In this document: positions 10,503 to 57,247 of the stretch, piece after piece
Position numbering within the stretch: position 1 is the first letter of the stretch
Layout: every line of letters begins with the position of its first letter
Source of the DNA: a virus
Taxonomy: Duplodnaviria > Heunggongvirae > Uroviricota > Caudoviricetes
Reading direction: 5' to 3' (one strand)
IMG/VR virus record: IMGVR_UViG_3300042401_001180
DNA length: 64,000 nt
Translations under genes and position numbers: made by a program
Notes under the pieces: generated by a model
Databases searched by the model: none
Seen by the model: only the letters and a program-made list of their open reading frames with translations
Told to the model about the DNA's origin: nothing

Positions 10503-10520
10503 ATTTATAAATACTTGTAT

Positions 10521-15911: not shown

Positions 15912-15949
15912 CTTTTTTATATATAAATATTATGTTAATTTTTATTTTT

Positions 15950-19894: not shown

Positions 19895-19912
19895 TTTTTT
19901 ATAAATATCAAA

Positions 19913-28932: not shown

Positions 28933-30207
28933 ATGTTAGAAGAAAAACTAAAAAATATCCCAAAATCTAGTGGTTGTTACCTTTTTAAAGATAAAAAGGG
29001 ACAAATTATCTATGTTGGTAAGGCAAAACACCTTCCAAATAGGGTAAAATCGTACTTTTCTAACAAAAATCACTCAAGTAAGACTAAATTATTGGTTGAA
29101 AACGTGTCAGATGTTGATTTTTTAACAACTTTAGATGAAAATTCAGCTCTTGTACTTGAAAATGACTTAATTAAGTCCTATAATCCCAAATTTAACATCA
29201 AATTAAAGGACGATCGTTCAAAAAAATGGTATTTAACCCTAACAAATGGTGATTTTCCTCGTTTAGAGGTAAAAAATGACACTAATTTAGAGTCAGAACC
29301 ACTTATTTGTGTCTCAAGTAGTAGTTTATGTCACGAAATGTATGAATTATTACACGATATCTTTAATTTACGCTCTTGTTCCTATGATATTACACCCGAA
29401 AATGTTGAAAATACCAAGTTTTCTGTATGTTTAGAGTATCATATGGGTAGATGTGACGCTCCTTGTACTAATAATATCAATAAATTTGTATATAATTCTA
29501 TTCTTTCTGACTTAAAACAGTTATTATCGTTTAATTTTAGTCAAGTTAAGGGTAAATTAACCCGTAAAATGGGTGTTTTTAGTAAAAGTATGGAGTTTGA
29601 GAAGGCAAATGATGTAAAATTCAGGTTAGATGCCCTTGATAAGTACGAAAAATGTGTTGAAACTACTCGTATTGGTGGTTATTTGGTGATTGCGGACGAC
29701 TTTAAGACTAAATATGTGTTAAAAAACACCCCAATTGACATTGAAATGTATGATAACTCCCATACTAATGGTGATTGTCAGGTATCTGCCCTTGTTAGAT
29801 ACACCAATGGCAAGAAAAACACGTCAGAATACCGTAAATTCAACATAAAAACAGTAGAAGGACCTGATGATTACGCCTCTTTTGATGAAGTTTTACGTAG
29901 AAGGTTCACAAGATTGTTAAATGAGAAGAAAAAACTACCTGATATGGTTATAATTGACGGTGGTAAGGGACAATTAGGGGTAGCAAAGAGGGTTTTTGAG
30001 GAACTATCACTACTTGACAAGGTAGATTTACTATCTATTGGTAAAAATTCGTCTCACAAGTCAGATATTATTCATTTTTGTGATGGAAATAGTGTTAAAT
30101 TTGAAAATTCTAAGTTTTTTAACCTGCTTGGTACTATTCAAGATGAGGTTCACAGGTTTGTAATCACTTTTCACCGTAAAAAACGTAGTAAAGCGATGTT
30201 AGGATAG
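28933..30207 (+). CDS. uvrC: UvrC-like excinuclease (GIY-YIG + UVR + RNase H-like domain, no C-terminal HhH)
   Basis: GCYLFKD..G.IIYVGKAK.L..RV.SYF, LE..LIK...P.FN..LKD, IE.YDNSH, GPDDYA...EV..RRF, PD...IDGGKGQL, DE.HRF.I.FHR. Confidence 0.9.
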   Translation: MLEEKLKNIPKSSGCYLFKDKKGQIIYVGKAKHLPNRVKSYFSNKNHSSKTKLLVENVSDVDFLTTLDENSALVLENDLIKSYNPKFNIKLKDDRSKKWYLTLTNGDFPRLEVKNDTNLESEPLICVSSSSLCHEMYELLHDIFNLRSCSYDITPENVENTKFSVCLEYHMGRCDAPCTNNINKFVYNSILSDLKQLLSFNFSQVKGKLTRKMGVFSKSMEFEKANDVKFRLDALDKYEKCVETTRIGGYLVIADDFKTKYVLKNTPIDIEMYDNSHTNGDCQVSALVRYTNGKKNTSEYRKFNIKTVEGPDDYASFDEVLRRRFTRLLNEKKKLPDMVIIDGGKGQLGVAKRVFEELSLLDKVDLLSIGKNSSHKSDIIHFCDGNSVKFENSKFFNLLGTIQDEVHRFVITFHRKKRSKAMLG

Positions 30208-30872: not shown

Positions 30873-31151
30873 TTAATCCTCATTGTAGTAAGAACTCTGT
30901 ACTCTAACCCCTTTAGGTAGGTTTACATCAGATCTTTTTACTCTATCTTGTCTTTTATATCTTTCAACAGGGAAATCTACGTTTAACTTGTTAAGTTGGA
31001 TGATGTATTTCATTCCATGCTCGTTAATTCTATTAATAACATCGTCAACAAGCTCAGTTCTTTCTGAAGCGGCAATTCCTGTAACAAAATCATTGCTTTC
31101 ATTAACTACTTTTTTAACAATTCTTCTAATATCTGATTCTTTTATTCTCAT
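30873..31151 (-). CDS. Leader-bearing small protein (MRIKESDIRRIVKKVVNE)
   Basis: 92 aa. Confidence 0.8.
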   Translation of the reverse strand: MRIKESDIRRIVKKVVNESNDFVTGIAASERTELVDDVINRINEHGMKYIIQLNKLNVDFPVERYKRQDRVKRSDVNLPKGVRVQSSYYNED

Positions 31152-33203: not shown

Positions 33204-33216
33204 ATCTATAAATACT

Positions 33217-35705: not shown

Positions 35706-36458
35706 CTATAAAAAGTAACTTCTTAGAACTTTTCTAATAGATTCATTAACTTTAATAATTAATTCACTTTTACCTGATTTAGATTTAGGAAAACTTAAAT
35801 CATTTCCATCCCAAACAACGTTAGTCGTATATGCACTACCAGAAGAGGGGCTAACAAGTGAATGTACGTCATTTGAACTATCAAGAGTTAAATAAACATT
35901 ATTTATTTTGTCATCACACTTTGATTTTAATCTTAACCAAAATGAATTAACTGTTCCCGTTTTAATATTATAATAAACACCAATTTTATAATTTTTTCCT
36001 TTATCTATTTCAAAACAAGGAACAGTACCATCTAAAAGGGATTGAAAAATATCATCTTCATCTGATAATAAATCATTTGGGGTTTTAAGTGAAACATTAT
36101 TGAATTTACTAAATAAATCTTTCCAATCATTACCCACTAATTTTTGGTCCTTAATGGTTAGGTACCCACTGTGATAAATATGAACATTAAAACCATCAAT
36201 TTCATTGTACATTTGTAAAAAATAATCAACACCATTAGGTATTTTTTTTGTTGTGTTGTAATTTTTAAAAACGGAATCAGAATTTATTAATTTATATTTG
36301 CCATCATCTAAAATACCTATAGAACTGTTTTTATCTAATATTAATATATCTCCCTCAGAATTTGGTACGCCTGTAGGTATATACTCAGTTTCTTCTTTTA
36401 AAACACGTTTAACAATTCGTTTTAAATCTGATTCTGTAAGTCTTATTACTTTTTTCAT
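35706..36458 (-). CDS. Leader-bearing hypothetical protein (MKKVIRLTESDLKRIVKRVLKEE)
   Basis: 250 aa; C-terminus ends with leader-like VNESIRKVLR. Confidence 0.8.
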   Translation of the reverse strand: MKKVIRLTESDLKRIVKRVLKEETEYIPTGVPNSEGDILILDKNSSIGILDDGKYKLINSDSVFKNYNTTKKIPNGVDYFLQMYNEIDGFNVHIYHSGYLTIKDQKLVGNDWKDLFSKFNNVSLKTPNDLLSDEDDIFQSLLDGTVPCFEIDKGKNYKIGVYYNIKTGTVNSFWLRLKSKCDDKINNVYLTLDSSNDVHSLVSPSSGSAYTTNVVWDGNDLSFPKSKSGKSELIIKVNESIRKVLRSYFL

Positions 36459-36532
36459 ATTATATAAATATATTCTAGTAAAGATTATATCGTAATAAAT
36501 AGTATTTTTTTATGTTATTTATAATAAAACGT

Positions 36533-37174: not shown

Positions 37175-37189
37175 ATGTTATAAATACCA

Positions 37190-45926: not shown

Positions 45927-46289
45927 TTACTTTCTTGGTAGATAATATCTTTTGTAAAAATGATTATAACTATCTATGTGTGAACACCCCCCTTTCATAT
46001 CAAATTGTAGTCCGAAGTAGTTATGGACTTCTTTTCTTATATTTTTTAGTATTTTGTGTAATTTATCTGATTCTACCATTGTAAATGGTTTTTTAAATAA
46101 TGCGGTGATTTCACACGTTTCATTATCATCAATTATATCCACAGCAACACCATAAAAGTTTTCAGGTAGTTCATAATCTTTCAATAACATATTTACAAAA
46201 TCTGTGATTGATTTTTCTAATGGAGTTCTTTTTGGTATGTCTTCCGTTTCCTCCTTTAATACTTTTCTTATGTGTTCTTGTAGGTTCAT
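45927..46289 (-). CDS. Leader-bearing hypothetical protein (MNLQEHIRKVLKEE)
   Basis: 120 aa. Confidence 0.8.
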   Translation of the reverse strand: MNLQEHIRKVLKEETEDIPKRTPLEKSITDFVNMLLKDYELPENFYGVAVDIIDDNETCEITALFKKPFTMVESDKLHKILKNIRKEVHNYFGLQFDMKGGCSHIDSYNHFYKRYYLPRK

Positions 46290-46855
46290 TCTTCTTCAGT
46301 TAAATAATCATCCATTATCTCAATGACTTTAGGTTTTACATTCGGGATGTCATTTATCTCTATATTAAAATTCCATAAGAAATTATCTTCTTGGTCGTAG
46401 ATACCTGTTTCAGGTGAATAATAGACTATGTTGGTGGCGAAGTTATTTATATCGTTTGAAATCGTTACATAATAATCAGACATTGTTCTATCATTCCTAA
46501 ATTCATAATCTAACATCTGACATACATCTTCAAAACTTGATTGATTGTTATCCCATTTGGCTAATAAAAATATTTCCGATGCCGTTGGATTTCCTGTTAT
46601 ACCTATTTTTGGTTTCTTTGGGTTTCTTTGAATTATTACTGCATGTTTACCTTTATGGTAATCTTCCCACTCATAAATATCATCATTAATACACCACTGG
46701 CATTGGTGAGCGTATTTTTGTAATGCTCTATGTGTTAATGGAACGACAACAATTATATTGTCATCTTTATATAGTTCCACTCTTTCACTTCTTGGAACTC
46801 TAACTTCATTAAGTTCTTCCCTTAATATTTTTCTTATATGTTCTTGTAGGTTCAT
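46286..46855 (-). CDS. Leader-bearing hypothetical protein (MNLQEHIRKILREE)
   Basis: Y.DD..IVVVPLTH.A...Y....QWCI domain. Confidence 0.8.
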   Translation of the reverse strand: MNLQEHIRKILREELNEVRVPRSERVELYKDDNIIVVVPLTHRALQKYAHQCQWCINDDIYEWEDYHKGKHAVIIQRNPKKPKIGITGNPTASEIFLLAKWDNNQSSFEDVCQMLDYEFRNDRTMSDYYVTISNDINNFATNIVYYSPETGIYDQEDNFLWNFNIEINDIPNVKPKVIEIMDDYLTEEE

Positions 46856-46861
46856 ATTAAT

Positions 46862-47269
46862 CTATACAAATTTAACTTTTAATGGTCCCATTCTAACATA
46901 ATCTATTGGGGAGTATTCTGTAACTGATGTAAGTAACATTGTCATAAAGTCGGATAACTCTTTTGCAAACTCCTGAGTTAATAAATCACCAAACCTTCTC
47001 ATATCGAACGTTTGTGGAAACGGTGTATAATCATAAACTTCCGACCATCTTTCTGATGCCCATTCTTCATCCACTTCTATTGTTCCATATATTGTTAAAG
47101 AATGTGGTTCTATTCCACTATAAGAAAACTCTTCTATTATTATATTTTTCCACCAATAAAACTTTTTTGACATTACCTTATTGATAGTCTTTTCAACTTC
47201 GGTGTTATCTTGTTTTGGCTTTTCCCAATATTCCTTTAATACCTTTCTTATGGATTCTTGTAGTATCAT
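46862..47269 (-). CDS. Leader-bearing hypothetical protein (MILQESIRKVLKE)
   Basis: start set at 47269. Confidence 0.8.
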   Translation of the reverse strand: MILQESIRKVLKEYWEKPKQDNTEVEKTINKVMSKKFYWWKNIIIEEFSYSGIEPHSLTIYGTIEVDEEWASERWSEVYDYTPFPQTFDMRRFGDLLTQEFAKELSDFMTMLLTSVTEYSPIDYVRMGPLKVKFV

Positions 47270-47997
47270 ACTGTTAAATCTATAAACCAAACTGATATTG
47301 GTATGTTTAGTTGATCAGCTACTGTTGATCGTTTGTGTCCACCAATTAATGTGTATTCATTTTTTTCTCTTCCTCCTGTTGGTAGTTTCATTACAAATGG
47401 TGCTGGAAGTTCTCTATGGTTTTCGTTTCTTAAGTTTTCTATATTATCAACATAACCTTTGTGGTTTGGGTTAACTTCTCCATCATCATTTGTCATTTGT
47501 TTAATTAATCCTGATGATGTGGTATCTTTAAATTTATATGGAAATACTTTTGAGAATCTTCCCATATAATATGTGCTGTTTATTTTTTCCTCTCCCCATT
47601 CTTCCATTCTTCCTTTATTAAACAAATTAAACCCTTCCATTTGTGATTCCCCATCTTTTAATAGAACTCTTCTAAAATCATCCCAATCATTCATTAAATC
47701 AGATATTTCTTTATCTAATAGAATGTCTTTAATTTCTTGCTCATTATCCACTTCACTTCCTTTTGCGTGTTCCGCAATCATTTTGAATGTGTGTGGGAAT
47801 ATGGAATACATTAAATCGTAATTTTGTGGATGAAAGAATTCATCTTTGCTAAACCTCATAGCATTCCCAAGTAATTCATCTAACTCTTGGGTAAAGTATT
47901 CTCTTGTTGGTTCTAACCAAGTAATGGAATATGGGTTTGACACTTCATTCAGTCCCATCATTGATTGTATTCTTGATATTTGTTCTTGTAAATTCAT
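47266..47997 (-). CDS. Leader-bearing protein with ParB/Srx-like C-terminal motif
   Basis: MNLQEQISRIQSMMGLNE; P..V......Y.LIGGHKR...A..L.IPI.VW. Confidence 0.6.
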   Translation of the reverse strand: MNLQEQISRIQSMMGLNEVSNPYSITWLEPTREYFTQELDELLGNAMRFSKDEFFHPQNYDLMYSIFPHTFKMIAEHAKGSEVDNEQEIKDILLDKEISDLMNDWDDFRRVLLKDGESQMEGFNLFNKGRMEEWGEEKINSTYYMGRFSKVFPYKFKDTTSSGLIKQMTNDDGEVNPNHKGYVDNIENLRNENHRELPAPFVMKLPTGGREKNEYTLIGGHKRSTVADQLNIPISVWFIDLTV

Positions 47998-48368
47998 ATA
48001 AAATATATATCTTCAACTTCTATTATGTTATTACCTATCCACTTTCTTAGTCTACCTTCTAACTCATCCACAAATGATTCTTCATCCATAAACAGTTGGC
48101 TTGTGCTAACTTTAATTTTAACAATTATTACTGGCTTATCATTGTGATAATCAAACCCCGTGACTTCTACTTGTGGTTTTGAGTATTCTAAAAAATCACA
48201 TACATCAAATGAAACCATATCGGTTGTATCTTCTGCACTCTGTGTAAAACATATTTCTTTCATTCGTTCCATTTCCATATCTATCAGGTATTGGAACGTC
48301 TCATTACTATTAATACGTTTTGATTCATTAAACTCTTCCCTTAATACCTTTCTAATTAAATTTTTCAT
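47994..48368 (-). CDS. Leader-bearing hypothetical protein (MKNLIRKVLREE), paralog of 59468-59863
   Basis: Q.LID......K...V....V.EL......G.N.I pattern. Confidence 0.8.
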   Translation of the reverse strand: MKNLIRKVLREEFNESKRINSNETFQYLIDMEMERMKEICFTQSAEDTTDMVSFDVCDFLEYSKPQVEVTGFDYHNDKPVIIVKIKVSTSQLFMDEESFVDELEGRLRKWIGNNIIEVEDIYFI

Positions 48369-49045
48369 TCTAAATAAAGATTAAAATAATCATAATCTTT
48401 GTCAAAAAACGCCGTGTTTGATGCTAAAACTAAAAGTACTTCATCAAAAAATGAGTATAACCCTTCGTTCCAATCATCAAGATTATCTTCATCAAGATTA
48501 TCAAAAAACTCACGTCTTGGTATAATTTCTTCATTATCACCATGTGAATCGTATTTGTATATTTTATTAAAATTAAAATATCCATAAAAAGATATCTCGT
48601 CTGAATATGTACTAATTTCGAAAGATTTATAATCTAAATTAAAAAAAAACATATTACTGTGGGTGTCACATCTAAACTCCTTTTTATTTTTTAATATTTG
48701 ATTGATTTTACTTGTATCCCCTTCGTTTAAATAACAATTATCTCTTGGTTTATCATAAAAACCCCTAACAAACCTGTCGTATTTTTGATAATCTCCGTTT
48801 ATCATTGCACAAAAAGTTCTAAATTCATCACCAATAACTCCATCTAAAACGCCGTAATTAAATGATCTATCGTTTGGGTTTTCGACATTCCACATTATTT
48901 TAGTTCCGTCATAGGTAGGATGTAACATTAAATCCTCAAAATATAATGGTTGTTGATTTAAATATTGTTCATAAAAAAACCGTACGGGATTAAATTTATT
49001 TTCTTCTTCCTTTAATATTCTTCTTATTTGTTCTTGTAAGTTCAT
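48365..49045 (-). CDS. Leader-bearing NPND.S family protein (MNLQEQIRRILKEE)
   Basis: W.VENPNDRSF. Confidence 0.8.
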   Translation of the reverse strand: MNLQEQIRRILKEEENKFNPVRFFYEQYLNQQPLYFEDLMLHPTYDGTKIMWNVENPNDRSFNYGVLDGVIGDEFRTFCAMINGDYQKYDRFVRGFYDKPRDNCYLNEGDTSKINQILKNKKEFRCDTHSNMFFFNLDYKSFEISTYSDEISFYGYFNFNKIYKYDSHGDNEEIIPRREFFDNLDEDNLDDWNEGLYSFFDEVLLVLASNTAFFDKDYDYFNLYLE

Positions 49046-49910: not shown

Positions 49911-50633
49911 TTAATTAATAATTATTATTTTCCAATTCCCATCATAATCTTCCACAAGACAAGTTGAGTTTTCACAGAAGTCCCCTGAGTTCATATAGTC
50001 ACTCTCTAATTTTGGTTGGTGTATGTGACCACAAACCGCAACATCATATCCTTTTTGTTTTGTTAACCCCTTTGCGTTCTCCTCAAAATCGGACACAAAG
50101 TTAATTGCTCCCTTTACAGACTGTTTAATGTCGTTTGCTAACGAATGGTATGGTAGATTGAATTTTCTTCTTATGAAGTTATAAAATGTATTTAATTTAA
50201 TAACCAAATCATAGGACCACCCACCAATAACAGCTAACCACCTCATCTTCATTATAACAAAGTCCAATACATCCCCGTGAAAACAATAATAACTTCTACC
50301 ATCAGCTCCAATGTGCGTGTATTTTCTAACTATTTGAATGTTATTCATAAAGAATGGAACAAATGGTTTTAAAAAGTCGTCGTGATTACCTCTGATATAA
50401 ATTACATTGGTTCCCTGTTCCGATCTTTTCATAAACTTTCTGAATACTTTTGAACATTCTTTTTTCCATTTACCTCCTGACTTTAATGCCCATCCATCAA
50501 TTATATCCCCGTTTAATATTAACGTGTCTGATTCGTTTTGTTCTAAGAATTTTAGTATCTTGTCTGTTTGTGATTGTCTTGCACCAAGATGTAAGTCGCT
50601 CATTATAATTGTTCTCCACTTTTTCATTTCCAA
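49911..50633 (-). CDS. Calcineurin-like metallophosphoesterase, UDP-2,3-diacylglucosamine diphosphatase (LpxH-like) family
   Basis: SDLHLG, LNGDIID, RGNHD, FHGD, CGHIH, Y.NSGD..E....L.E...G.W. Confidence 0.85.
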   Translation of the reverse strand: MEMKKWRTIIMSDLHLGARQSQTDKILKFLEQNESDTLILNGDIIDGWALKSGGKWKKECSKVFRKFMKRSEQGTNVIYIRGNHDDFLKPFVPFFMNNIQIVRKYTHIGADGRSYYCFHGDVLDFVIMKMRWLAVIGGWSYDLVIKLNTFYNFIRRKFNLPYHSLANDIKQSVKGAINFVSDFEENAKGLTKQKGYDVAVCGHIHQPKLESDYMNSGDFCENSTCLVEDYDGNWKIIIIN

Positions 50634-51346
50634 TACCCTTTATCGTTTGTGAAATATGTTTTATTGTTTTGATTAAAAAATGATGACATCATTAATTTTA
50701 ACATATAGATAACCCCTTTATTTTCAAATCTTCTTGGTGGTGTGTATACTATATTTTTAATTCTTCCAAACTTTTTTGGTTTGATTTGTTTTGAGAATAT
50801 ATAATCCTCAGCAACTTTTACGTCCTCATCAAACCCACCGATTTCTTTAAAGGTTTCTGATCTAACTAACATAAATCCACCTAAACAGAATGGTGTTGAC
50901 CACTTTGACATTAACTGTATAAAATCGAATGTTTTATAAACGTAGTTATAGTTACCGTTATCTGATCTAAACTTAGTTGTTACAAGATCCAAATGATATC
51001 TATCTATTTTAATTATTGAACGTATTAGAATTTTAGGGTCTAATAGGAACACATCGGCATCCATAAATAGTACGTATGGTGTTGTAACAAGTTTGAATCC
51101 ATTGTTTCTTGCCTTTGATGGTAGTCCACCGTCCATAACATATAAATTAAATAAGTCAGTGTTACTATCATACTCCAATCTATCTAATAAATTGGGTCTT
51201 GTGATTCCATCATTTGATGCGTCGCACACAATTACTTTAACATTGGAGACGTCTTTTTGGTGATTTAATAAATCTAATGTTTTTTGGATAATTCCCTTCT
51301 CATTTTTACAAGGGATAACGATGGTTAATAAGTTTTTTAAATCCAT
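50624..51346 (-). CDS. Glycosyltransferase family 2
   Basis: IVIPCKNE, VIVCDAS.DG, ARN.G, F.DAD, GGF.E.....ED. Confidence 0.9.
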   Translation of the reverse strand: MDLKNLLTIVIPCKNEKGIIQKTLDLLNHQKDVSNVKVIVCDASNDGITRPNLLDRLEYDSNTDLFNLYVMDGGLPSKARNNGFKLVTTPYVLFMDADVFLLDPKILIRSIIKIDRYHLDLVTTKFRSDNGNYNYVYKTFDFIQLMSKWSTPFCLGGFMLVRSETFKEIGGFDEDVKVAEDYIFSKQIKPKKFGRIKNIVYTPPRRFENKGVIYMLKLMMSSFFNQNNKTYFTNDKGYWK

Positions 51347-51415
51347 ATATTATAAATATAATTTATATTGTACTAATAATAGGACTTAACAATTTAATAA
51401 TCAACTAATAAATTT

Positions 51416-53344
51416 TTACTTACTAATTGGATCCCATTCGCAATTTGGTTTGCCGTATGATCCAACATACAAATTATCTATTGGTATATATTGTTTGATG
51501 GTGTTTTTAACCTCCATTCTTAATTTTGAAATGTGACTCTGCATAGCAGGAACATAAATAAACTTTTCATTCATTTCTTCTGTTCCAATAACAAGATATG
51601 CCGTATACATATCATCCTCATCGTCGTATGAAACATTTATATCACAGACACCCTCCTCATCTTTAAATGGTTCAACTAATTCTTCAATTAGACTTAAATA
51701 TTTTGGTTCAGTTTCTTTTGATTCATTTATAACATTTCCTTCATTATCGTATTTTAGTTTAATGGCATCCAAGCGAAAATCTGAATCAGTGTTATGCTGT
51801 TCATGGTGCCAATACGGACGAAGTTTAATGCCTGTATATTCATATATTTCATGTTGTATTTGTTCGGCAAAATAAGTCTCTTCATTACCAAAATCTTTAT
51901 CGTTATCAAAATAAACTATTATCATTGGTTTATTTTCATATTTTTTAATTTTAATAAAACTAACCTCATCAAAAAGCGTATGTATTAAATCTTTAACCAT
52001 TTTAAGTTTATTATTTTCAGATTTGTCAATTGATTCCATTAATCCCCAATCCTTACCTGTGCCTTCACGCTTTAATGTTATTGCATCTACGGGTATGTTT
52101 TCAAATGTCACTATATGTTTTGATCTTGATTCGTAGTGTTTATCTTTGTACCACTTAACATCAGGTATCATTTCAGTATTAATTTCCCATACATCGTCAT
52201 CGTATGTAGAATCAAACGACGCTCTTTTATTTGTTGAGTTAGTAGCAAAGATTGCTGGTATACATTTTTCTCCGTAACCTGCATATATTTTATAACATTC
52301 TCCAGCCCTTACTTTTAACCCTTCATTTAATATTTTATCTCTAACCTTTGGATTAGATTTATGTATAACAATTTTGTTTGGCGTTATTTCTTTTCCTGCA
52401 GGACTATAATTTTCTTTTGACTCTCTAAGATATATGTTTTTCTTTCCACAATCTTTAACGGTTTTGTGATATACATCTACCCCCTCATTTGTGTAATTAT
52501 AAATCACGTCCCAAACCTCATCCATTACATCATCATACATTCTTTGAACCCCTTGAGTTTGTGGCCAAAGTTTTGTACCAGGTCCACCAATAAATATTAT
52601 TGTAACACTTATAAACTTAAATGGAGTATTGCCCAAAGTGTCAAACCTTTCGTGTGGTTCTTTCACTTCAAACCCACAAATAACGTGCTCATACTCAGGT
52701 AATACTATAGTATTTAATACTTTTTCAATAATTTCTTTTTGTGATTCTTTTTTAGATTCGTTCAAAAATTCAGGTTCATCCTCACAACTATCAACAAACC
52801 ACGGCGTGTATATATAAACACGTATTCCCATTGATCGTATTGTATTATCTAAAAACTCTAACTCTTTTTGCGTGTCGTCAATATTGAAGTCTAAATTTGC
52901 ATATTTAGAACGTATTTCATATTCCCCGTCCATCTTGTTATATTCTACCCAAATATCACATAAACCATCCCAACTAACTTGTTTTATTATGGTTCTTATA
53001 ACATTTAGATTTCTTTCTATTTCTTTGGGTGTTTCTTTGATATTTTCATTAAGTTCTTCTTCGTATTCCTCAGTATCAATATAAAAATCGGGTTGGTTAT
53101 CGTGTTCTCTATCCTCATGCCAAGGAACAACATCTAAACCCGTATATTGACTAATCATATCACATATTTCGGTGGGTATTAACATTTGTCGGTTATCACG
53201 ATTAGTATAATATATCATAACCTCATTTCTTTTGGTAACGTATTCTATAAAACTAACATTATCAAACATAGTGTATATAAGATTCTTAACTAACTCAAAT
53301 TTGTTAGTTTCTTCCTTTAATATGTGTTTAATAAGTCCTCTCAT
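51416..53344 (-). CDS. Leader-bearing six-module polyprotein-like protein including an ADP-ribosyltransferase-fold-like module
   Basis: MRGLIKHILKEE; junctions LNE, LNE, LRE, LME, INE; modules 1 and 5 are paralogous. Confidence 0.8.
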   Translation of the reverse strand: MRGLIKHILKEETNKFELVKNLIYTMFDNVSFIEYVTKRNEVMIYYTNRDNRQMLIPTEICDMISQYTGLDVVPWHEDREHDNQPDFYIDTEEYEEELNENIKETPKEIERNLNVIRTIIKQVSWDGLCDIWVEYNKMDGEYEIRSKYANLDFNIDDTQKELEFLDNTIRSMGIRVYIYTPWFVDSCEDEPEFLNESKKESQKEIIEKVLNTIVLPEYEHVICGFEVKEPHERFDTLGNTPFKFISVTIIFIGGPGTKLWPQTQGVQRMYDDVMDEVWDVIYNYTNEGVDVYHKTVKDCGKKNIYLRESKENYSPAGKEITPNKIVIHKSNPKVRDKILNEGLKVRAGECYKIYAGYGEKCIPAIFATNSTNKRASFDSTYDDDVWEINTEMIPDVKWYKDKHYESRSKHIVTFENIPVDAITLKREGTGKDWGLMESIDKSENNKLKMVKDLIHTLFDEVSFIKIKKYENKPMIIVYFDNDKDFGNEETYFAEQIQHEIYEYTGIKLRPYWHHEQHNTDSDFRLDAIKLKYDNEGNVINESKETEPKYLSLIEELVEPFKDEEGVCDINVSYDDEDDMYTAYLVIGTEEMNEKFIYVPAMQSHISKLRMEVKNTIKQYIPIDNLYVGSYGKPNCEWDPISK

Positions 53345-53346
53345 TA

Positions 53347-53889
53347 TTATGCTTTTAATGTTTCTACTATACCCCAAATGTCAGACATATCATAAATACG
53401 ACTTGGGTTACTTGGTTGTTGTATAGTTTTTCCGTTTATTTCCCCCAACTGAACATAGGTTTGATGCATTCTAAGTTCATCACTATTAAGTTCAAGAACT
53501 CTTACTGAAGCCTCAACATTAAAAGAATCATATAAAAAATCTTTAAATTTATAATCCTCATCTTTAGTTAATTTATTTTCATTATAAATAATATTAACTA
53601 TTGGCCAACTATTAGTCATCCATATATTCCATTCGGCATCAATAGTTTTAAATGGTAAAACAATTGATGGTTCGTCCCCATCCGTTGTCCAAGATACTTT
53701 AACTAAACCTTTCTGTTTTTCAATTCTTTCAACCATTTCGGGGTCATCTTTAAAAATCCCTTTTAAGTTGTCTAATCCCCCAACCAATTTTGCCGCATAA
53801 AACAATCCATCCGTTTTTATTAAATTAATAATATCTAAATTATTACCTTTAGTCTCCTCCTTTAATATTTTTTTAATTATATGTCTCAT
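53347..53889 (-). CDS. Leader-bearing hypothetical protein (MRHIIKKILKEE)
   Basis: 180 aa; G...AAKLVGG..NL motif also seen in 55741-56175. Confidence 0.8.
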   Translation of the reverse strand: MRHIIKKILKEETKGNNLDIINLIKTDGLFYAAKLVGGLDNLKGIFKDDPEMVERIEKQKGLVKVSWTTDGDEPSIVLPFKTIDAEWNIWMTNSWPIVNIIYNENKLTKDEDYKFKDFLYDSFNVEASVRVLELNSDELRMHQTYVQLGEINGKTIQQPSNPSRIYDMSDIWGIVETLKA

Positions 53890-54368
53890 TAAACAAATAT
53901 AAAATATGAAATATTAATTTCTTTTGGATAGTATCGTTCAGTTTCTCCGAAATAACCTTCAGCTTGGTACATCATTTTATATTCATTAGGTATTAATTCG
54001 TACGAATCTTCAACCGTTTCTTTTATTTTTTTTGATATATCATATTGATCATCGTTTAATCCATAGTCTAACATACTTGTTGGAAAAGCAAGATTTGTTT
54101 TATTTTTAATAAGTTTCTCAATCTCTTCAGGGTATTTTTCGTAAAAAGATCTGAAAGGTAAGTTATAATATTCTTTAACTTTTTTATGATCCACAACTAA
54201 ATCTATATAAAAAAAATATTTAGTATTATCCCAATTATTAGCCTTTTCCCAACCAACAATAAATGGATACGTTTTGTTGGCAACACTAATACATACGTCA
54301 ATACCTTTTTCCACCGATTTATAATCTTTGGTTTCTTCTTTTAATATGTGTCGTATCAAATCTTTCAT
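53889..54368 (-). CDS. Leader-bearing hypothetical protein (MKDLIRHILKEE)
   Basis: 159 aa. Confidence 0.8.
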   Translation of the reverse strand: MKDLIRHILKEETKDYKSVEKGIDVCISVANKTYPFIVGWEKANNWDNTKYFFYIDLVVDHKKVKEYYNLPFRSFYEKYPEEIEKLIKNKTNLAFPTSMLDYGLNDDQYDISKKIKETVEDSYELIPNEYKMMYQAEGYFGETERYYPKEINISYFIFV

Positions 54369-54955
54369 AATTCTCTTTTAATCATATTATACATAAATGA
54401 AGATATCTCTTCAGATGATTTAACATTATTCATTCTAAACTGATGTTTAAATTGTTCTATCATTTGTTTTATTTGTCCTACAGGTACATTTTTGTACATT
54501 TGTGGTGGAACAAATGACGAATCAATATACCCACTTTTAATAAGTTGTCTTAGTTTTAATGCCGCATATTTATCAGCAACAATTTCTGTATTTCTCATAA
54601 AATCAGCAGCCTCATCTATTGTTACTTCACCACTATAACATCTATACATTTCATCAGCTCCATACTTTTTAAACTGGTATTGGTGAGCCACTTCGTGAAG
54701 TATAATGAATATTAACATAGGTAATCGATTATTCAATGCTATGTTATTAATTAATACCCCATTATGTAAAGCCATTCCTAATGCCCCGTATTTAAAATTT
54801 GCAAATTCAATTTTTTGACAATCCGATTCCTCAATAAATGAAATCAAAACGTCCTTGAACTCCGAAACTTCAGGGTATTTACCCTCAATGGTATCAATAA
54901 AACTATCAATATTTTGGGTCTCTTCTTTTAATATTTTTTTAATTATATGTCTCAT
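54365..54955 (-). CDS. Leader-bearing HExxH metalloprotease-like protein
   Basis: MRHIIKKILKEE; ILHEVAHQYQ, downstream E..AD.YA. Confidence 0.7.
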   Translation of the reverse strand: MRHIIKKILKEETQNIDSFIDTIEGKYPEVSEFKDVLISFIEESDCQKIEFANFKYGALGMALHNGVLINNIALNNRLPMLIFIILHEVAHQYQFKKYGADEMYRCYSGEVTIDEAADFMRNTEIVADKYAALKLRQLIKSGYIDSSFVPPQMYKNVPVGQIKQMIEQFKHQFRMNNVKSSEEISSFMYNMIKREL

Positions 54956-55031
54956 CAATGATAAATACCTCAATAAAATATTTATTGGTTAATTTAAACC
55001 TTAATTAGGTTGTTTTTTGTATCTTTATGGT

Positions 55032-55325
55032 ATGAAAGAACTAATCAAATATCTCGTTATTCGTATTACCACTCGTCACGCAAAAACAGCTGCAGACATC
55101 TACCAAACCCTCTATCCTGTTAAGGAAAAAGAGATTGTTTATGTTGCTCGAATCATCAATACAACTACGTCTGAAAACGTGTCAGTATCTTCTGTCGCAA
55201 ACACTAATAGTAAAAAGAATGAGGTTCTTAATTCTTTGGAGTACCTTAAAAATAAACCTGTTAAAACAAAACAGGATAAGGATTCTATCTACTCGTTGGA
55301 GATGGTGTTAAAGAATATGAAATGA
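55032..55325 (+). CDS. Hypothetical protein on the opposite strand
   Basis: 97 aa; near-consensus TATCTTTA upstream. Confidence 0.65.
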   Translation: MKELIKYLVIRITTRHAKTAADIYQTLYPVKEKEIVYVARIINTTTSENVSVSSVANTNSKKNEVLNSLEYLKNKPVKTKQDKDSIYSLEMVLKNMK

Positions 55326-55706
55326 TTAAAAATTAACCCAAGCTTGTGCCTTGAATTCTAATTGTACTGGTGAGCCATAATCTATAACATGAAAATCAAA
55401 GTAATTTTTAAAAATACCGACTATGTCTATTTTTATTCTGCTCAATGGTCTCAATTCTTCTTTTGTTAAATCAACAAATTTTAATGTTACCACAATTACA
55501 TCCACAGTAGGTGTCCCCCTTGTTGATCCTAACTGTACCTTTTTTGTTTTATATTCAACATCAACAAGGTTTGGGTACTGAGATTTAATGTAATCGATAA
55601 TATCACTTTTAGTGCTTTCAAACCTCTCAAATTCCTTATAGTGGTTATCGATAAACTCCTGTCCTTGAAGTTCTTCTTTTAGAATTTTTTTAATAGTGTT
55701 TTTCAT
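55326..55706 (-). CDS. Leader-bearing hypothetical protein (MKNTIKKILKEE)
   Basis: 126 aa. Confidence 0.8.
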   Translation of the reverse strand: MKNTIKKILKEELQGQEFIDNHYKEFERFESTKSDIIDYIKSQYPNLVDVEYKTKKVQLGSTRGTPTVDVIVVTLKFVDLTKEELRPLSRIKIDIVGIFKNYFDFHVIDYGSPVQLEFKAQAWVNF

Positions 55707-55740
55707 TATTTATAAATAGTTCATTTTTAAATTGTATACC

Positions 55741-56175
55741 TCATTCAATATTTCCAATTACTTTTTCTCCATTTGCGTAGATTCTGTGACCCATTAAATT
55801 ATATACATCACGCAACCATATCTTTATGATGTCTTTAATTTCTGATAAATCAAGACTAAACCCATCTTTCAAAAATGACCAAATTTGTTCATAATTAACG
55901 TAAACATATTCAGTTTTTCCGTCGTAAACCATCAAATTATTTCCTTTTTTATATCTAAATAATGTCCAATCTTCATCTTCCACACTCTGAACAACATCCA
56001 AGTCATTAAATAAATGTAAAAATTCTACTGGATTGTTGTTAAACCCTAATTTTACTAAATTTTCTGTACCTCCAACAAGTTCTGCGGTTTCTTCAAAACC
56101 AAACGCTTTAACTTGTTGTTTAAGATTCTGTTTAAGACTTTCTTCTTTTAATATTTTTTTGATTAGTTTTTCCAT
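55741..56175 (-). CDS. Leader-bearing hypothetical protein (MEKLIKKILKEE)
   Basis: YD.K...VY.NY..IWS.L...F.L...EI..II..WL..VY.L domain. Confidence 0.8.
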   Translation of the reverse strand: MEKLIKKILKEESLKQNLKQQVKAFGFEETAELVGGTENLVKLGFNNNPVEFLHLFNDLDVVQSVEDEDWTLFRYKKGNNLMVYDGKTEYVYVNYEQIWSFLKDGFSLDLSEIKDIIKIWLRDVYNLMGHRIYANGEKVIGNIE

Positions 56176-57216: not shown

Positions 57217-57247
57217 ACAATATATATAAATACCCTATAAAATGAAA

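Follow-up and report, generated by a model that had tools for sequence, protein, structure and literature searches.

Introduction

The bacteriophage T4 protease gp21 cleaves after the tripeptide L/I-x-E (PMC9026906). The first 10 residues of the T4 internal protein IPIII form a capsid targeting sequence (CTS) that is sufficient for packaging; a foreign protein placed behind IPIII or its CTS in a fusion is likewise packaged and delivered, and an Asp in the P1 position of the CTS prevents its processing (PMC9026906). T4 Alt is cut at both ends and the T4 core proteins are cut many times (PMC5694885). Prohead proteases cut head proteins at multiple sites not only in T4 but also in phiKZ, 201phi2-1 and SPN3US (PMC5694885, PMC10052503), and the SPN3US protease, a relative of gp21, favors Ser at P1', the position just after the cut (PMC10052503). 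Polyvalent proteins, which are multi-domain proteins of phages and conjugative elements, have been likened to RNA-virus polyproteins (Iyer, Burroughs, Anand, de Souza and Aravind 2017; PMC5512222). Here we analyze a protein encoded on the minus strand at positions 51416-53344 of a 64,000-nucleotide stretch (hereafter, the window) of a Caudoviricetes genome, IMG/VR virus record IMGVR_UViG_3300042401_001180. On balance, its sequence, its modeled structure and the analogy with T4 incline us to read it as a CTS-led cargo precursor that would be cut by a Peptidase_S77 (gp21-family) enzyme at its leader and at five joints, leaving six small proteins in the head.

Six predicted domains separated by L/I-x-E linkers

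The frame translates into 642 residues that begin with MRGLIKHILKEE. A TTG at 53377 would lengthen it and overlap the upstream gene. The ATG at 53344 sits two bases past the TAA of that gene, and we consider it the credible start because the leader register then matches that of 10 neighboring genes and of a close relative, the 92%-identical protein P0001. The parts of the protein are as follows, with an arrow marking each predicted cut.

51416..53344 (-), whole open reading frame (ORF): 642 aa, 75.9 kDa, isoelectric point (pI) 4.8; stop codon 51416-51418
53312..53344 (-), leader MRGLIKHILKE, residues 1-11: predicted cut after E11 (LKE is residues 9-11, then E)
53045..53311 (-), module M1, residues 12-100: 10.9 kDa, pI 4.2; alpha-beta-beta-alpha-beta; paralogue of M5 and M3; LNE end
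53045-53053 (-), junction LNE↓N, residues 98-100: between M1 and M2
52757..53044 (-), module M2, residues 101-196: 11.6 kDa; alpha-beta-beta-alpha-beta; paralogue of M6; LNE end
52757-52765 (-), junction LNE↓S, residues 194-196: between M2 and M3
52421..52756 (-), module M3, residues 197-308: 13.1 kDa; alpha-beta-beta-alpha-beta; related to M1, M5 and M6; LRE end
52421-52429 (-), junction LRE↓S, residues 306-308: between M3 and M4
52034..52420 (-), module M4, residues 309-437: 14.8 kDa, pI 7.7; beta-rich, resembling the NAD lobe of Tpt1/KptA; LME end
52034-52042 (-), junction LME↓S, residues 435-437: between M4 and M5
51722..52033 (-), module M5, residues 438-541: 12.6 kDa; paralogue of M1; INE end
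51722-51730 (-), junction INE↓S, residues 539-541: between M5 and M6
51419..51721 (-), module M6, residues 542-642: 11.8 kDa; paralogue of M2 and M3; last module, without an [LI]xE tail

The original prediction, made from the letters and their translation alone, had placed these five junctions and had noted a charged stretch behind them; translation returned every junction where it was expected, and the charged stretches are there as well (SKKESQKE, SKENYSP, SIDKSEN and SKETEPK). It had also anticipated six compact domains with disordered junctions. We ran AlphaFold2 on two overlapping halves of the protein with module-wise alignments (A2, 97 rows; A3, 114 rows), which gave a mean predicted local distance difference test (pLDDT) of 75.9 and 79.7. 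An earlier alignment (A1), in which 141 module pieces were set against the whole protein, was discarded, because its M2 and M3 pieces landed on M6. The models show six compact domains with block pLDDT mostly 80-95. Internally, pLDDT falls below 50 only at residues 79-99, 194-198, 300-312, 433-440 and 541-545, which are the five junctions; these lie in the lowest-confidence linkers, outside the folded domains, as had been expected. Leader residues 1-10 also score below 50. If every site were cut, the products would be 10.9, 11.6, 13.1, 14.8, 12.6 and 11.8 kDa.

Five of the modules (M1, M2, M3, M5 and M6) have a common alpha-beta-beta-alpha-beta layout in the predicted structure. The paralogy of M1 and M5, which had been noticed by eye, holds up (BLASTP 33% identity, E 5e-15; hhalign probability 99%, E 3e-18), and further hhalign profile links join M1 to M3 (E 7e-13), M3 to M5 (1.5e-7), M2 to M6 (8e-7) and M3 to M6 (5e-6). 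By these profile comparisons, all five are diverged paralogues, a wider kinship than that of M1 and M5. Their fold matches include the C-terminal domains of cation diffusion facilitator transporters, ribosomal proteins and ring domains of type III secretion systems, with Z scores of 7-9 (M2, ~8). Because this alpha/beta arrangement is common and the matches are generic, we read no function from them. Searching Pfam and PHROGs with the whole 642-residue protein gave nothing beyond a sub-threshold DUF5820 inside M4. The chain contains no HExxH, and neither database gave a peptidase match.

The junction motif is also rare outside this protein. The pattern [LIM][NRMKQ]ES occurs four times in 612 residues of the target, compared to 0.39 times per 1000 residues in 215 non-leader ORFs from the window and from G002, a collinear contig described below; among all of these, only the target and its G002 counterpart contain at least two copies. 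The excess in the target exceeds the chance expectation. We considered whether the recurring NES could be an N-glycosylation sequon (N-x-S) and rejected this, as LRES, LMES and the LKEE of the leader share only the hydrophobic-x-Glu pattern.

The junction motif is kept while modules are shuffled

Searching IMG/VR with the target protein identified eight related loci, whereas looking there for exact matches to the start of the gene gave none. An exhaustive HMMER search found 456 clusters (50% identity) at E<=1e-3, 96 of these at E<=1e-30. Module mapping, order counts and junction statistics refer to the best 150 of the 456 clusters. At least two modules are present in 76 of these 150 relatives, 28 of the 36 possible ordered neighbor pairs are observed, and the 40 proteins with at least three mapped modules display 35 different module orders. 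The G002 counterpart (635 aa), for example, reads leader-M4-X-M2-Y-M3-M6. P0001, which is 94-100% identical to the target, has one extra module of ~100 aa that is inserted exactly between ..EELNE↓ and NKETPKEIERN. Short single-module proteins also occur among the relatives. The original prediction had proposed a search for stand-alone, leader-bearing homologues of the modules as a check. Stand-alone forms exist, and each of the six module types is found in other proteins immediately after an N-terminal leader (M4 in 20 cases, M1 and M5 in 8 each, M6 in 5, M3 in 4 and M2 in 2).

Despite this scrambling of module order, the junctions are conserved among the homologues. The motif [LIM]xE is found in 128 of 136 junction windows (94%) compared to 231 of 1376 interior windows (17%), and [LIM]xE[SN] in 107 of 136 compared to 9 of 1376, although the rows are related sequences and Fisher p-values therefore overstate the case. 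The consensus has L, I or M at P3, N more often than R and R more often than M at P2, Glu at P1 in 134 of 134 anchored junctions and Ser at P1' in 95 of 134. The junction sites of the target are retained in 71-88% of aligned rows, and interior [LIMV]xE sites in 0-54%, except for an LVE followed by Pro. Since the contexts of the junctions are scrambled, inheritance alone does not explain the conservation of the motif.

Each junction has two parts with different attachments. Positions P3-P1 go with the upstream module (..CEDEVEFLNE in M2, ..GNVINE in M5, ..GKDWGLME in M4 and ..KNIYLRE in M3), and the S-(K/E)-(E/D) part goes with the downstream module. M4 is preceded by ILREE↓DYSPAGKE at N-termini and internally by YLRE↓SKENYSPAGKE, LNE↓NYSPAGKE or INE↓NYSPAGKE, while some junctions contain a whole leader (..NLQESIRRILREE.., YLKEHIKKVLKEE). 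A junction is interchangeable with the end of a leader. The codons differ at all five target junctions, and leader copies likewise differ in their codons, so that their conservation is at the protein level; in both cases the constraint acts on the peptide. A DNA-level repeat serving as a recombination substrate is unsupported in the target gene, given the same codon differences.

The ends of the chains are informative as well. When M2 is the terminal module, 8 of 10 copies end with ..F(L/I/M)(N/D/S), one residue before the P1 Glu. Two copies of terminal M3 end with ..IYLR, and other terminal modules end with ..LNE or ..LNESK. At six chain ends on five distinct contigs, the DNA has a TAA stop at each and intergenic sequence after five. 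At the sixth, L018:2380-2480 (ENA contig k141_827061), TAA occupies the position of the P1 Glu codon (GAA) of an M2-M3 junction (..EVKFIN-stop-SKENSTKELINKV..), and a complete M3 follows in frame without a start codon or leader; this stop may have arisen by a recent nonsense mutation, or it may be read through. Because chains stop near the predicted cut, evolution treats the P1/P1' bond as a module boundary to within one residue, and the positions of the chain ends agree better with cleavage than with a passive linker.

M4 resembles the NAD-binding lobe of Tpt1/KptA

One module stands apart from the others. Residues 316-426 of M4 (model residues 17-127) superpose on residues 83-180 of the 9ldi chain (VIA-align; Z 10.7, root-mean-square deviation of 2.1 Å over 88 residues, 23% identity), and Foldseek matched M4 to the C-lobe of Tpt1/KptA (E 4.9e-5, probability 1.0). 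Its viral fold matches include phage proteins annotated as RNA 2'-phosphotransferase, PARP-like and DarT, and 52 M4 homologues share an invariant H (H20 of alignment A4), R, FA(T) and D. M4 thus shares the fold of the C-terminal NAD-binding, ADP-ribosyltransferase (ART) lobe of Tpt1/KptA, at 20-23% identity over 88 residues. It differs in having no N-terminal RNA-binding lobe: only the C-lobe aligns, and M4 is not the two-lobed Arg-His-Arg-Arg enzyme, in which the N-terminal lobe holds three of the four catalytic residues. None of the 52 homologues matched PF01885 (Tpt1) in Pfam at E<=0.1, DUF5820 appeared sub-threshold only, and a PDB profile search with the M4 alignment returned nothing meaningful (best E 0.88). 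Because the N-lobe is absent and there is no Tpt1 match in Pfam, we regard M4 as an ART-fold domain rather than a Tpt1, and as the sole module that resembles an enzyme. The original prediction of separate effectors is too strong, as all modules except M4 are paralogous versions of a single small domain.

The leader is shared with neighboring genes

The target leader type is common to at least 10 neighboring genes. Eleven ORFs in the window have an N-terminal-proximal hydrophobic-(K/R)-x-(I/V)-(I/L)-(K/R)-E-(E/D/S) leader; depending on how strict the pattern is, the window has 11-13 leader genes and G002 has 16-18. Three flavors of leader can be told apart: MK.LI+KILKEE, MNLQE.IR+ILREE and a longer M+KIIRLTESDL.RIVKRVLKEE. 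They vary at synonymous sites yet keep the amphipathic pattern and the [IL]x(K/R)E-E end. Nine of the leader-bearing genes lie in two groups on either side of the target.

53347-53889 (-), leader-bearing gene just upstream of the target
53889-54368 (-), leader-bearing gene of the same group
54365-54955 (-), leader-bearing gene of the same group; 196 aa
55326-55706 (-), leader-bearing gene of the same group
55741-56175 (-), leader-bearing gene of the same group (group span 53347..56175)
45927-46289 (-), leader-bearing gene of a second group
46286-46855 (-), leader-bearing gene of the second group
47994-48368 (-), leader-bearing gene of the second group
48365-49045 (-), leader-bearing gene of the second group (group span 45927..49045)

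Three of the five genes in 53347..56175 are fused to M2-M6-type modules in other phages. In 45927..49045, three of the four have a leader of the MNLQE.IR+(I/V)L+EE type and three of the four are polyprotein modules elsewhere. Altogether, six stand-alone leader genes of the window, besides the target, recur as chain modules in other phages. In G002, leader genes also flank the capsid gene.

The protein of 54365-54955 has an HExxH (H87, E88, H91) that is invariant in six homologues, and no Pfam or PHROG family match. A conserved TEEVAD lies downstream of the HExxH, making this sequence a candidate zincin. Modules of its type form the C-terminal end of P0007, P0014, P0066, P0131 and P0143, which also hold M2-M4-type modules.

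Two further observations concern the leaders themselves. The product of 47994-48368 (-) has a junction-type motif right behind its leader (MKNLIRKVLREE-FNES-K), so that two candidate cut sites lie four residues apart. The longer leader (M+KIIRLTESDL.RIVKRVLKEE, ~23 aa) heads other proteins, at 35706-36458 (-) and 30873-31151 (-) in the window and at 48125, 54177 and 88422 in G002; in it, the hydrophobic-x-Glu pattern occurs twice, as LTE↓S and as LKE↓E.

A collinear relative has T4-type head genes

The window is ~30% G+C, has few family matches and contains no tRNA. It is collinear, in reverse orientation, with positions 13-83 kb of G002, a 128-kb IMG/VR contig with a CheckV completeness of 43%, at 40-95% amino-acid identity, and, within the collinear region, divergence and rearrangement are greatest in the leader-gene cluster. 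G002 encodes a set of T4-type head proteins: the large terminase TerL (Terminase_6N), a portal (Portal_T4, E 1.4e-77), a Gp23-family capsid protein (E 1.2e-74) that matches 2575 T4-like phage records, and a Peptidase_S77 of the gp21 family (L010:9908-10615; 80.9 bits, compared to a cut-off of 27) adjoined by an acidic scaffold-like protein. From the collinearity with G002, we assign the window to a lineage of uncultured, giant T4-like phages. The host is probably a member of the Bacteroidota; in line with this, GEVED and CHU_C (type-9-secretion-type) domains are encoded near capsid and polyprotein genes at L010:14497-16566 (+) and L019:2441-3004.

Several other features of the window deserve mention. 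Directly downstream of the target, 49911-51346 (-) encodes a GT2 glycosyltransferase and a calcineurin-like metallophosphoesterase, both of which are conserved in G002 at another position. A UvrC-like protein with GIY-YIG and UvrC RNase H endonuclease domains (E 5e-45) at 28933-30207 (+) is 90% identical in G002. The T4 late promoter TATAAATA is enriched in the window, with 41 copies compared to 18.7 expected (examples at 10506-10513, 15922-15929, 19900-19907, 33207-33214, 36463-36470, 37179-37186, 51351-51358 and 57225-57232). Most copies are on the plus strand, antisense to minus-strand genes, and we therefore dropped the motif as evidence on expression timing. Most of them lie just beyond the starts of minus-strand genes, where the sense reading is TATTTATA, 4-15 nt upstream of the ATG; TATTTATA possibly serves this group of phages as a promoter or as an initiation element.

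A proposed cargo precursor and its alternatives

The targeting, cleavage, head retention and injection that we infer would proceed as follows. The 11-residue amphipathic leader would act like the CTS of a T4 internal protein and tie the 76-kDa chain to the scaffolding core during prohead assembly. A gp21-type serine protease (Peptidase_S77) would cut behind the leader Glu (LKE↓E) and, within each of the exposed linkers, five in all, behind the Glu of an [LI][NRM]E that precedes S or N, and the six folded proteins of 11-15 kDa set free in this way would remain in the head and exit with the DNA. The payload would be five copies of a small acidic alpha-beta-beta-alpha-beta domain together with the ART-type M4, which recalls the packaged Alt of T4. 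Cleavage would make fused and separate genes equivalent, with modules moving between a leader gene of their own and a chain, and this would explain the extreme shuffling. What is observed, and supports the precursor reading indirectly, is the architecture, the positions of the linkers, the conserved motif, the shuffled modules and the presence of T4-type head genes in the collinear relative.

Several points weigh against it. The motif [LIM]xE is short and also occurs inside folded modules. The protease gene is known from the collinear G002 and lies outside the 64-kb window. Compared with Tequatrovirus gp23, the G002 capsid protein has no [LI]xE at the T4 cut site (GSFLTE opposite GSFET), a nearby LINE↓A being the sole candidate. 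Neither the target nor a conserved 1083-aa neighbor has a match in INPHARED (50,697 cultured or deposited phage records, tblastn), leaving the system with no cultured relative there. Finally, five tandem paralogous domains would also suit an uncut repeat protein. This last point leads to an alternative in which the protein is packaged and loses only its leader, persisting as intact beads on a string whose junctions are fusion relics or a favored linker. Some junctions are clearly fossil leaders from the in-frame fusion of two leader genes, paralogous modules are what ordinary repeat proteins have, and the cuts mapped in SPN3US, protease self-cleavage aside, free N-terminal propeptides only (PMC10052503). 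However, in most junctions the remainder of the leader is missing and yet P3, P1 and P1' are strictly kept, with Ser at P1' in place of the leader's Glu, which points to selection on the site itself. In addition, the motif is retained over 28 neighbor combinations, terminal modules end within one residue of the predicted scissile bond and not anywhere in the linker, and exposed L/I-x-E sites among active gp21-type protease in a prohead would be expected to be cut (PMC9026906). An intact string is therefore unlikely in our view, although it deserves to be taken seriously.

Three other explanations strike us as weaker. A cytoplasmic multi-domain protein with Glu/Ser/Lys-rich linkers, with its leader acting as an intracellular signal or else as an A-rich region of translation initiation, would suit a gene that sits among non-structural genes (the GT2 glycosyltransferase and the metallophosphoesterase) outside a head module, and at least 11 tagged genes per 64 kb are many for head cargo. 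Bacteroidota lack Shine-Dalgarno sites; the leader codons are A-rich (AAA AAA ATA TTA AAA GAA GAA), and no Shine-Dalgarno-like sequence lies upstream of the 51416-53344 gene. Yet the leader varies synonymously while its amphipathic pattern and its end are kept, [LIM]xE recurs internally, where translation initiation is irrelevant, leader genes flank the capsid gene in G002, and the T4 internal-protein genes are also outside the head gene cluster; we judge a cytoplasmic role decidedly improbable. The polyvalent-protein model would instead have the junctions cut by the leader-bearing HExxH (zincin-like) protein at 54365-54955, two genes upstream. Its HExxH is invariant in six homologues, it is fused C-terminally to such chains in relatives, and zincin-like metallopeptidase (MPTase) domains have been proposed to process polyvalent proteins (Iyer et al. 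2017, PMC5512222). Against this model, the motif fits the T4 gp21 rule and equals the leader end, which is a gp21 site in T4, and 54365-54955 has no peptidase support from Pfam or PHROGs, nor has the target chain an HExxH of its own. Zincins, moreover, generally recognize residues after the cut (P1') and not a Glu before it, and we give this model a very small chance. Smaller still is the chance we allow to a sacrificial core or scaffold component that is cut for clearance from the prohead, like T4 gp22, gp67 and gp68, and delivers no cargo. The chain is acidic (pI 4.8) and thus scaffold-like, and T4 core proteins are typically cut at multiple sites (PMC5694885). The fragments, however, would be folded domains of 11-15 kDa, one with an enzyme fold, and not short peptides; the gene is hypervariable, with a module gained or lost between close relatives (P0001), unlike an essential size-determining scaffold; and G002 already has a separate acidic scaffold beside its protease.

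Implications

A more general proposal is that environmental T4-like giant phages have a combinatorial system of one tag and many cargoes, in which prohead-protease sites are the module boundaries and stoichiometric sets of proteins, including an ART-fold enzyme, are injected. We put this forward tentatively, at slightly less than an even chance, and the same holds for its corollary that a single G to T exchange, or the reverse, at the P1 Glu codon (GAA to TAA or back) would suffice to end or extend a chain. If correct, it would amount to a real polyprotein strategy in a double-stranded DNA phage, with the cleavage site as the unit boundary of cassette evolution, and any cargo gene could join or leave a chain without functional loss.

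If the joints are cut, the T4 CTS/gp21 system, known for single small proteins, would naturally load strings of proteins with one tag, and the evolution of a very large, fast-shuffling cargo pool (456 clusters at 50% identity for six modules) would be explained. Cleavage would also point to a large untapped set of injected proteins, candidate anti-defense or host-takeover factors, in abundant uncultured Bacteroidota phages, and would offer engineered T4 heads a precedent from nature for the delivery of several cargoes at once.

Comparison with known systems

The T4 internal proteins are the closest parallel. Like IPI, IPII, IPIII and Alt, the target has a short N-terminal leader ending in hydrophobic-x-Glu (11 aa here, 10 in T4), one leader is found on several otherwise unrelated genes of a hypervariable locus, and head genes of the gp20, gp21 and gp23 types occur in the lineage, as seen in G002. 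At 11-15 kDa, the products expected here fall in the same size range, and the ART-fold module is reminiscent of Alt. As far as sequence can tell, the target has the testable features of a CTS-bearing internal protein, namely the leader, its sharing among genes and the head genes of the lineage. Pfam and PHROGs gave no match that would link the target to the T4 internal proteins by sequence similarity. The architecture differs: the T4 internal proteins are separate genes with one N-terminal cut (Alt also has a C-terminal one), whereas the target has six modules behind one leader, with five further sites, and these modules are shuffled among hundreds of relatives. The P1' residue is usually Ala in T4, compared to Ser here.

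The S80 proteases of phiKZ, 201phi2-1 and SPN3US, which are related to gp21, likewise cut after the Glu of a three-residue motif and make several cuts per head or ejection protein (PMC10052503, PMC5694885). Their motif is of the A/S/G-x-E type, in contrast to L/I/M-x-E in the target. In phiKZ and SPN3US, the extra cuts destroy a long N-terminal propeptide and leave one mature C-terminal product; in the target, every piece is predicted to be folded, and apart from the 11-residue leader there is no sign of a propeptide.

Polyvalent proteins resemble the target in combining many independent, extensively rearranged modules in one phage polypeptide, and delivery with the DNA followed by proteolytic release has been proposed for them. 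Their release has been attributed to an embedded zincin-like MPTase; the target chain, by contrast, lacks a peptidase and bears a prohead-protease motif at its joints. From the polyvalent repertoire (MPTase, ParB-like, ART, PBECR and LPD), only the ART-type fold of M4 is represented; the other modules have no Pfam match, and the LPD families were not searched separately. Five of the six target modules are paralogues of one small domain, which is a further difference. The polyproteins of RNA viruses differ as well, in that the target chain lacks a protease of its own and the candidate protease is encoded separately, among the head genes.

Full-text literature searches, whose coverage is not exhaustive, returned no description of these leader peptides or of prohead-protease polyproteins. 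The original prediction had called a concatemer cut by the head protease unusual for a double-stranded DNA phage. With multi-site cutting of head proteins already known (PMC5694885, PMC10052503) and polyvalent proteins already likened to polyproteins (PMC5512222), that claim needs to be narrowed. What is new is the use of folded cargo modules that are delimited by, and shuffled at, predicted prohead-protease sites, a variant of the T4 internal-protein system.

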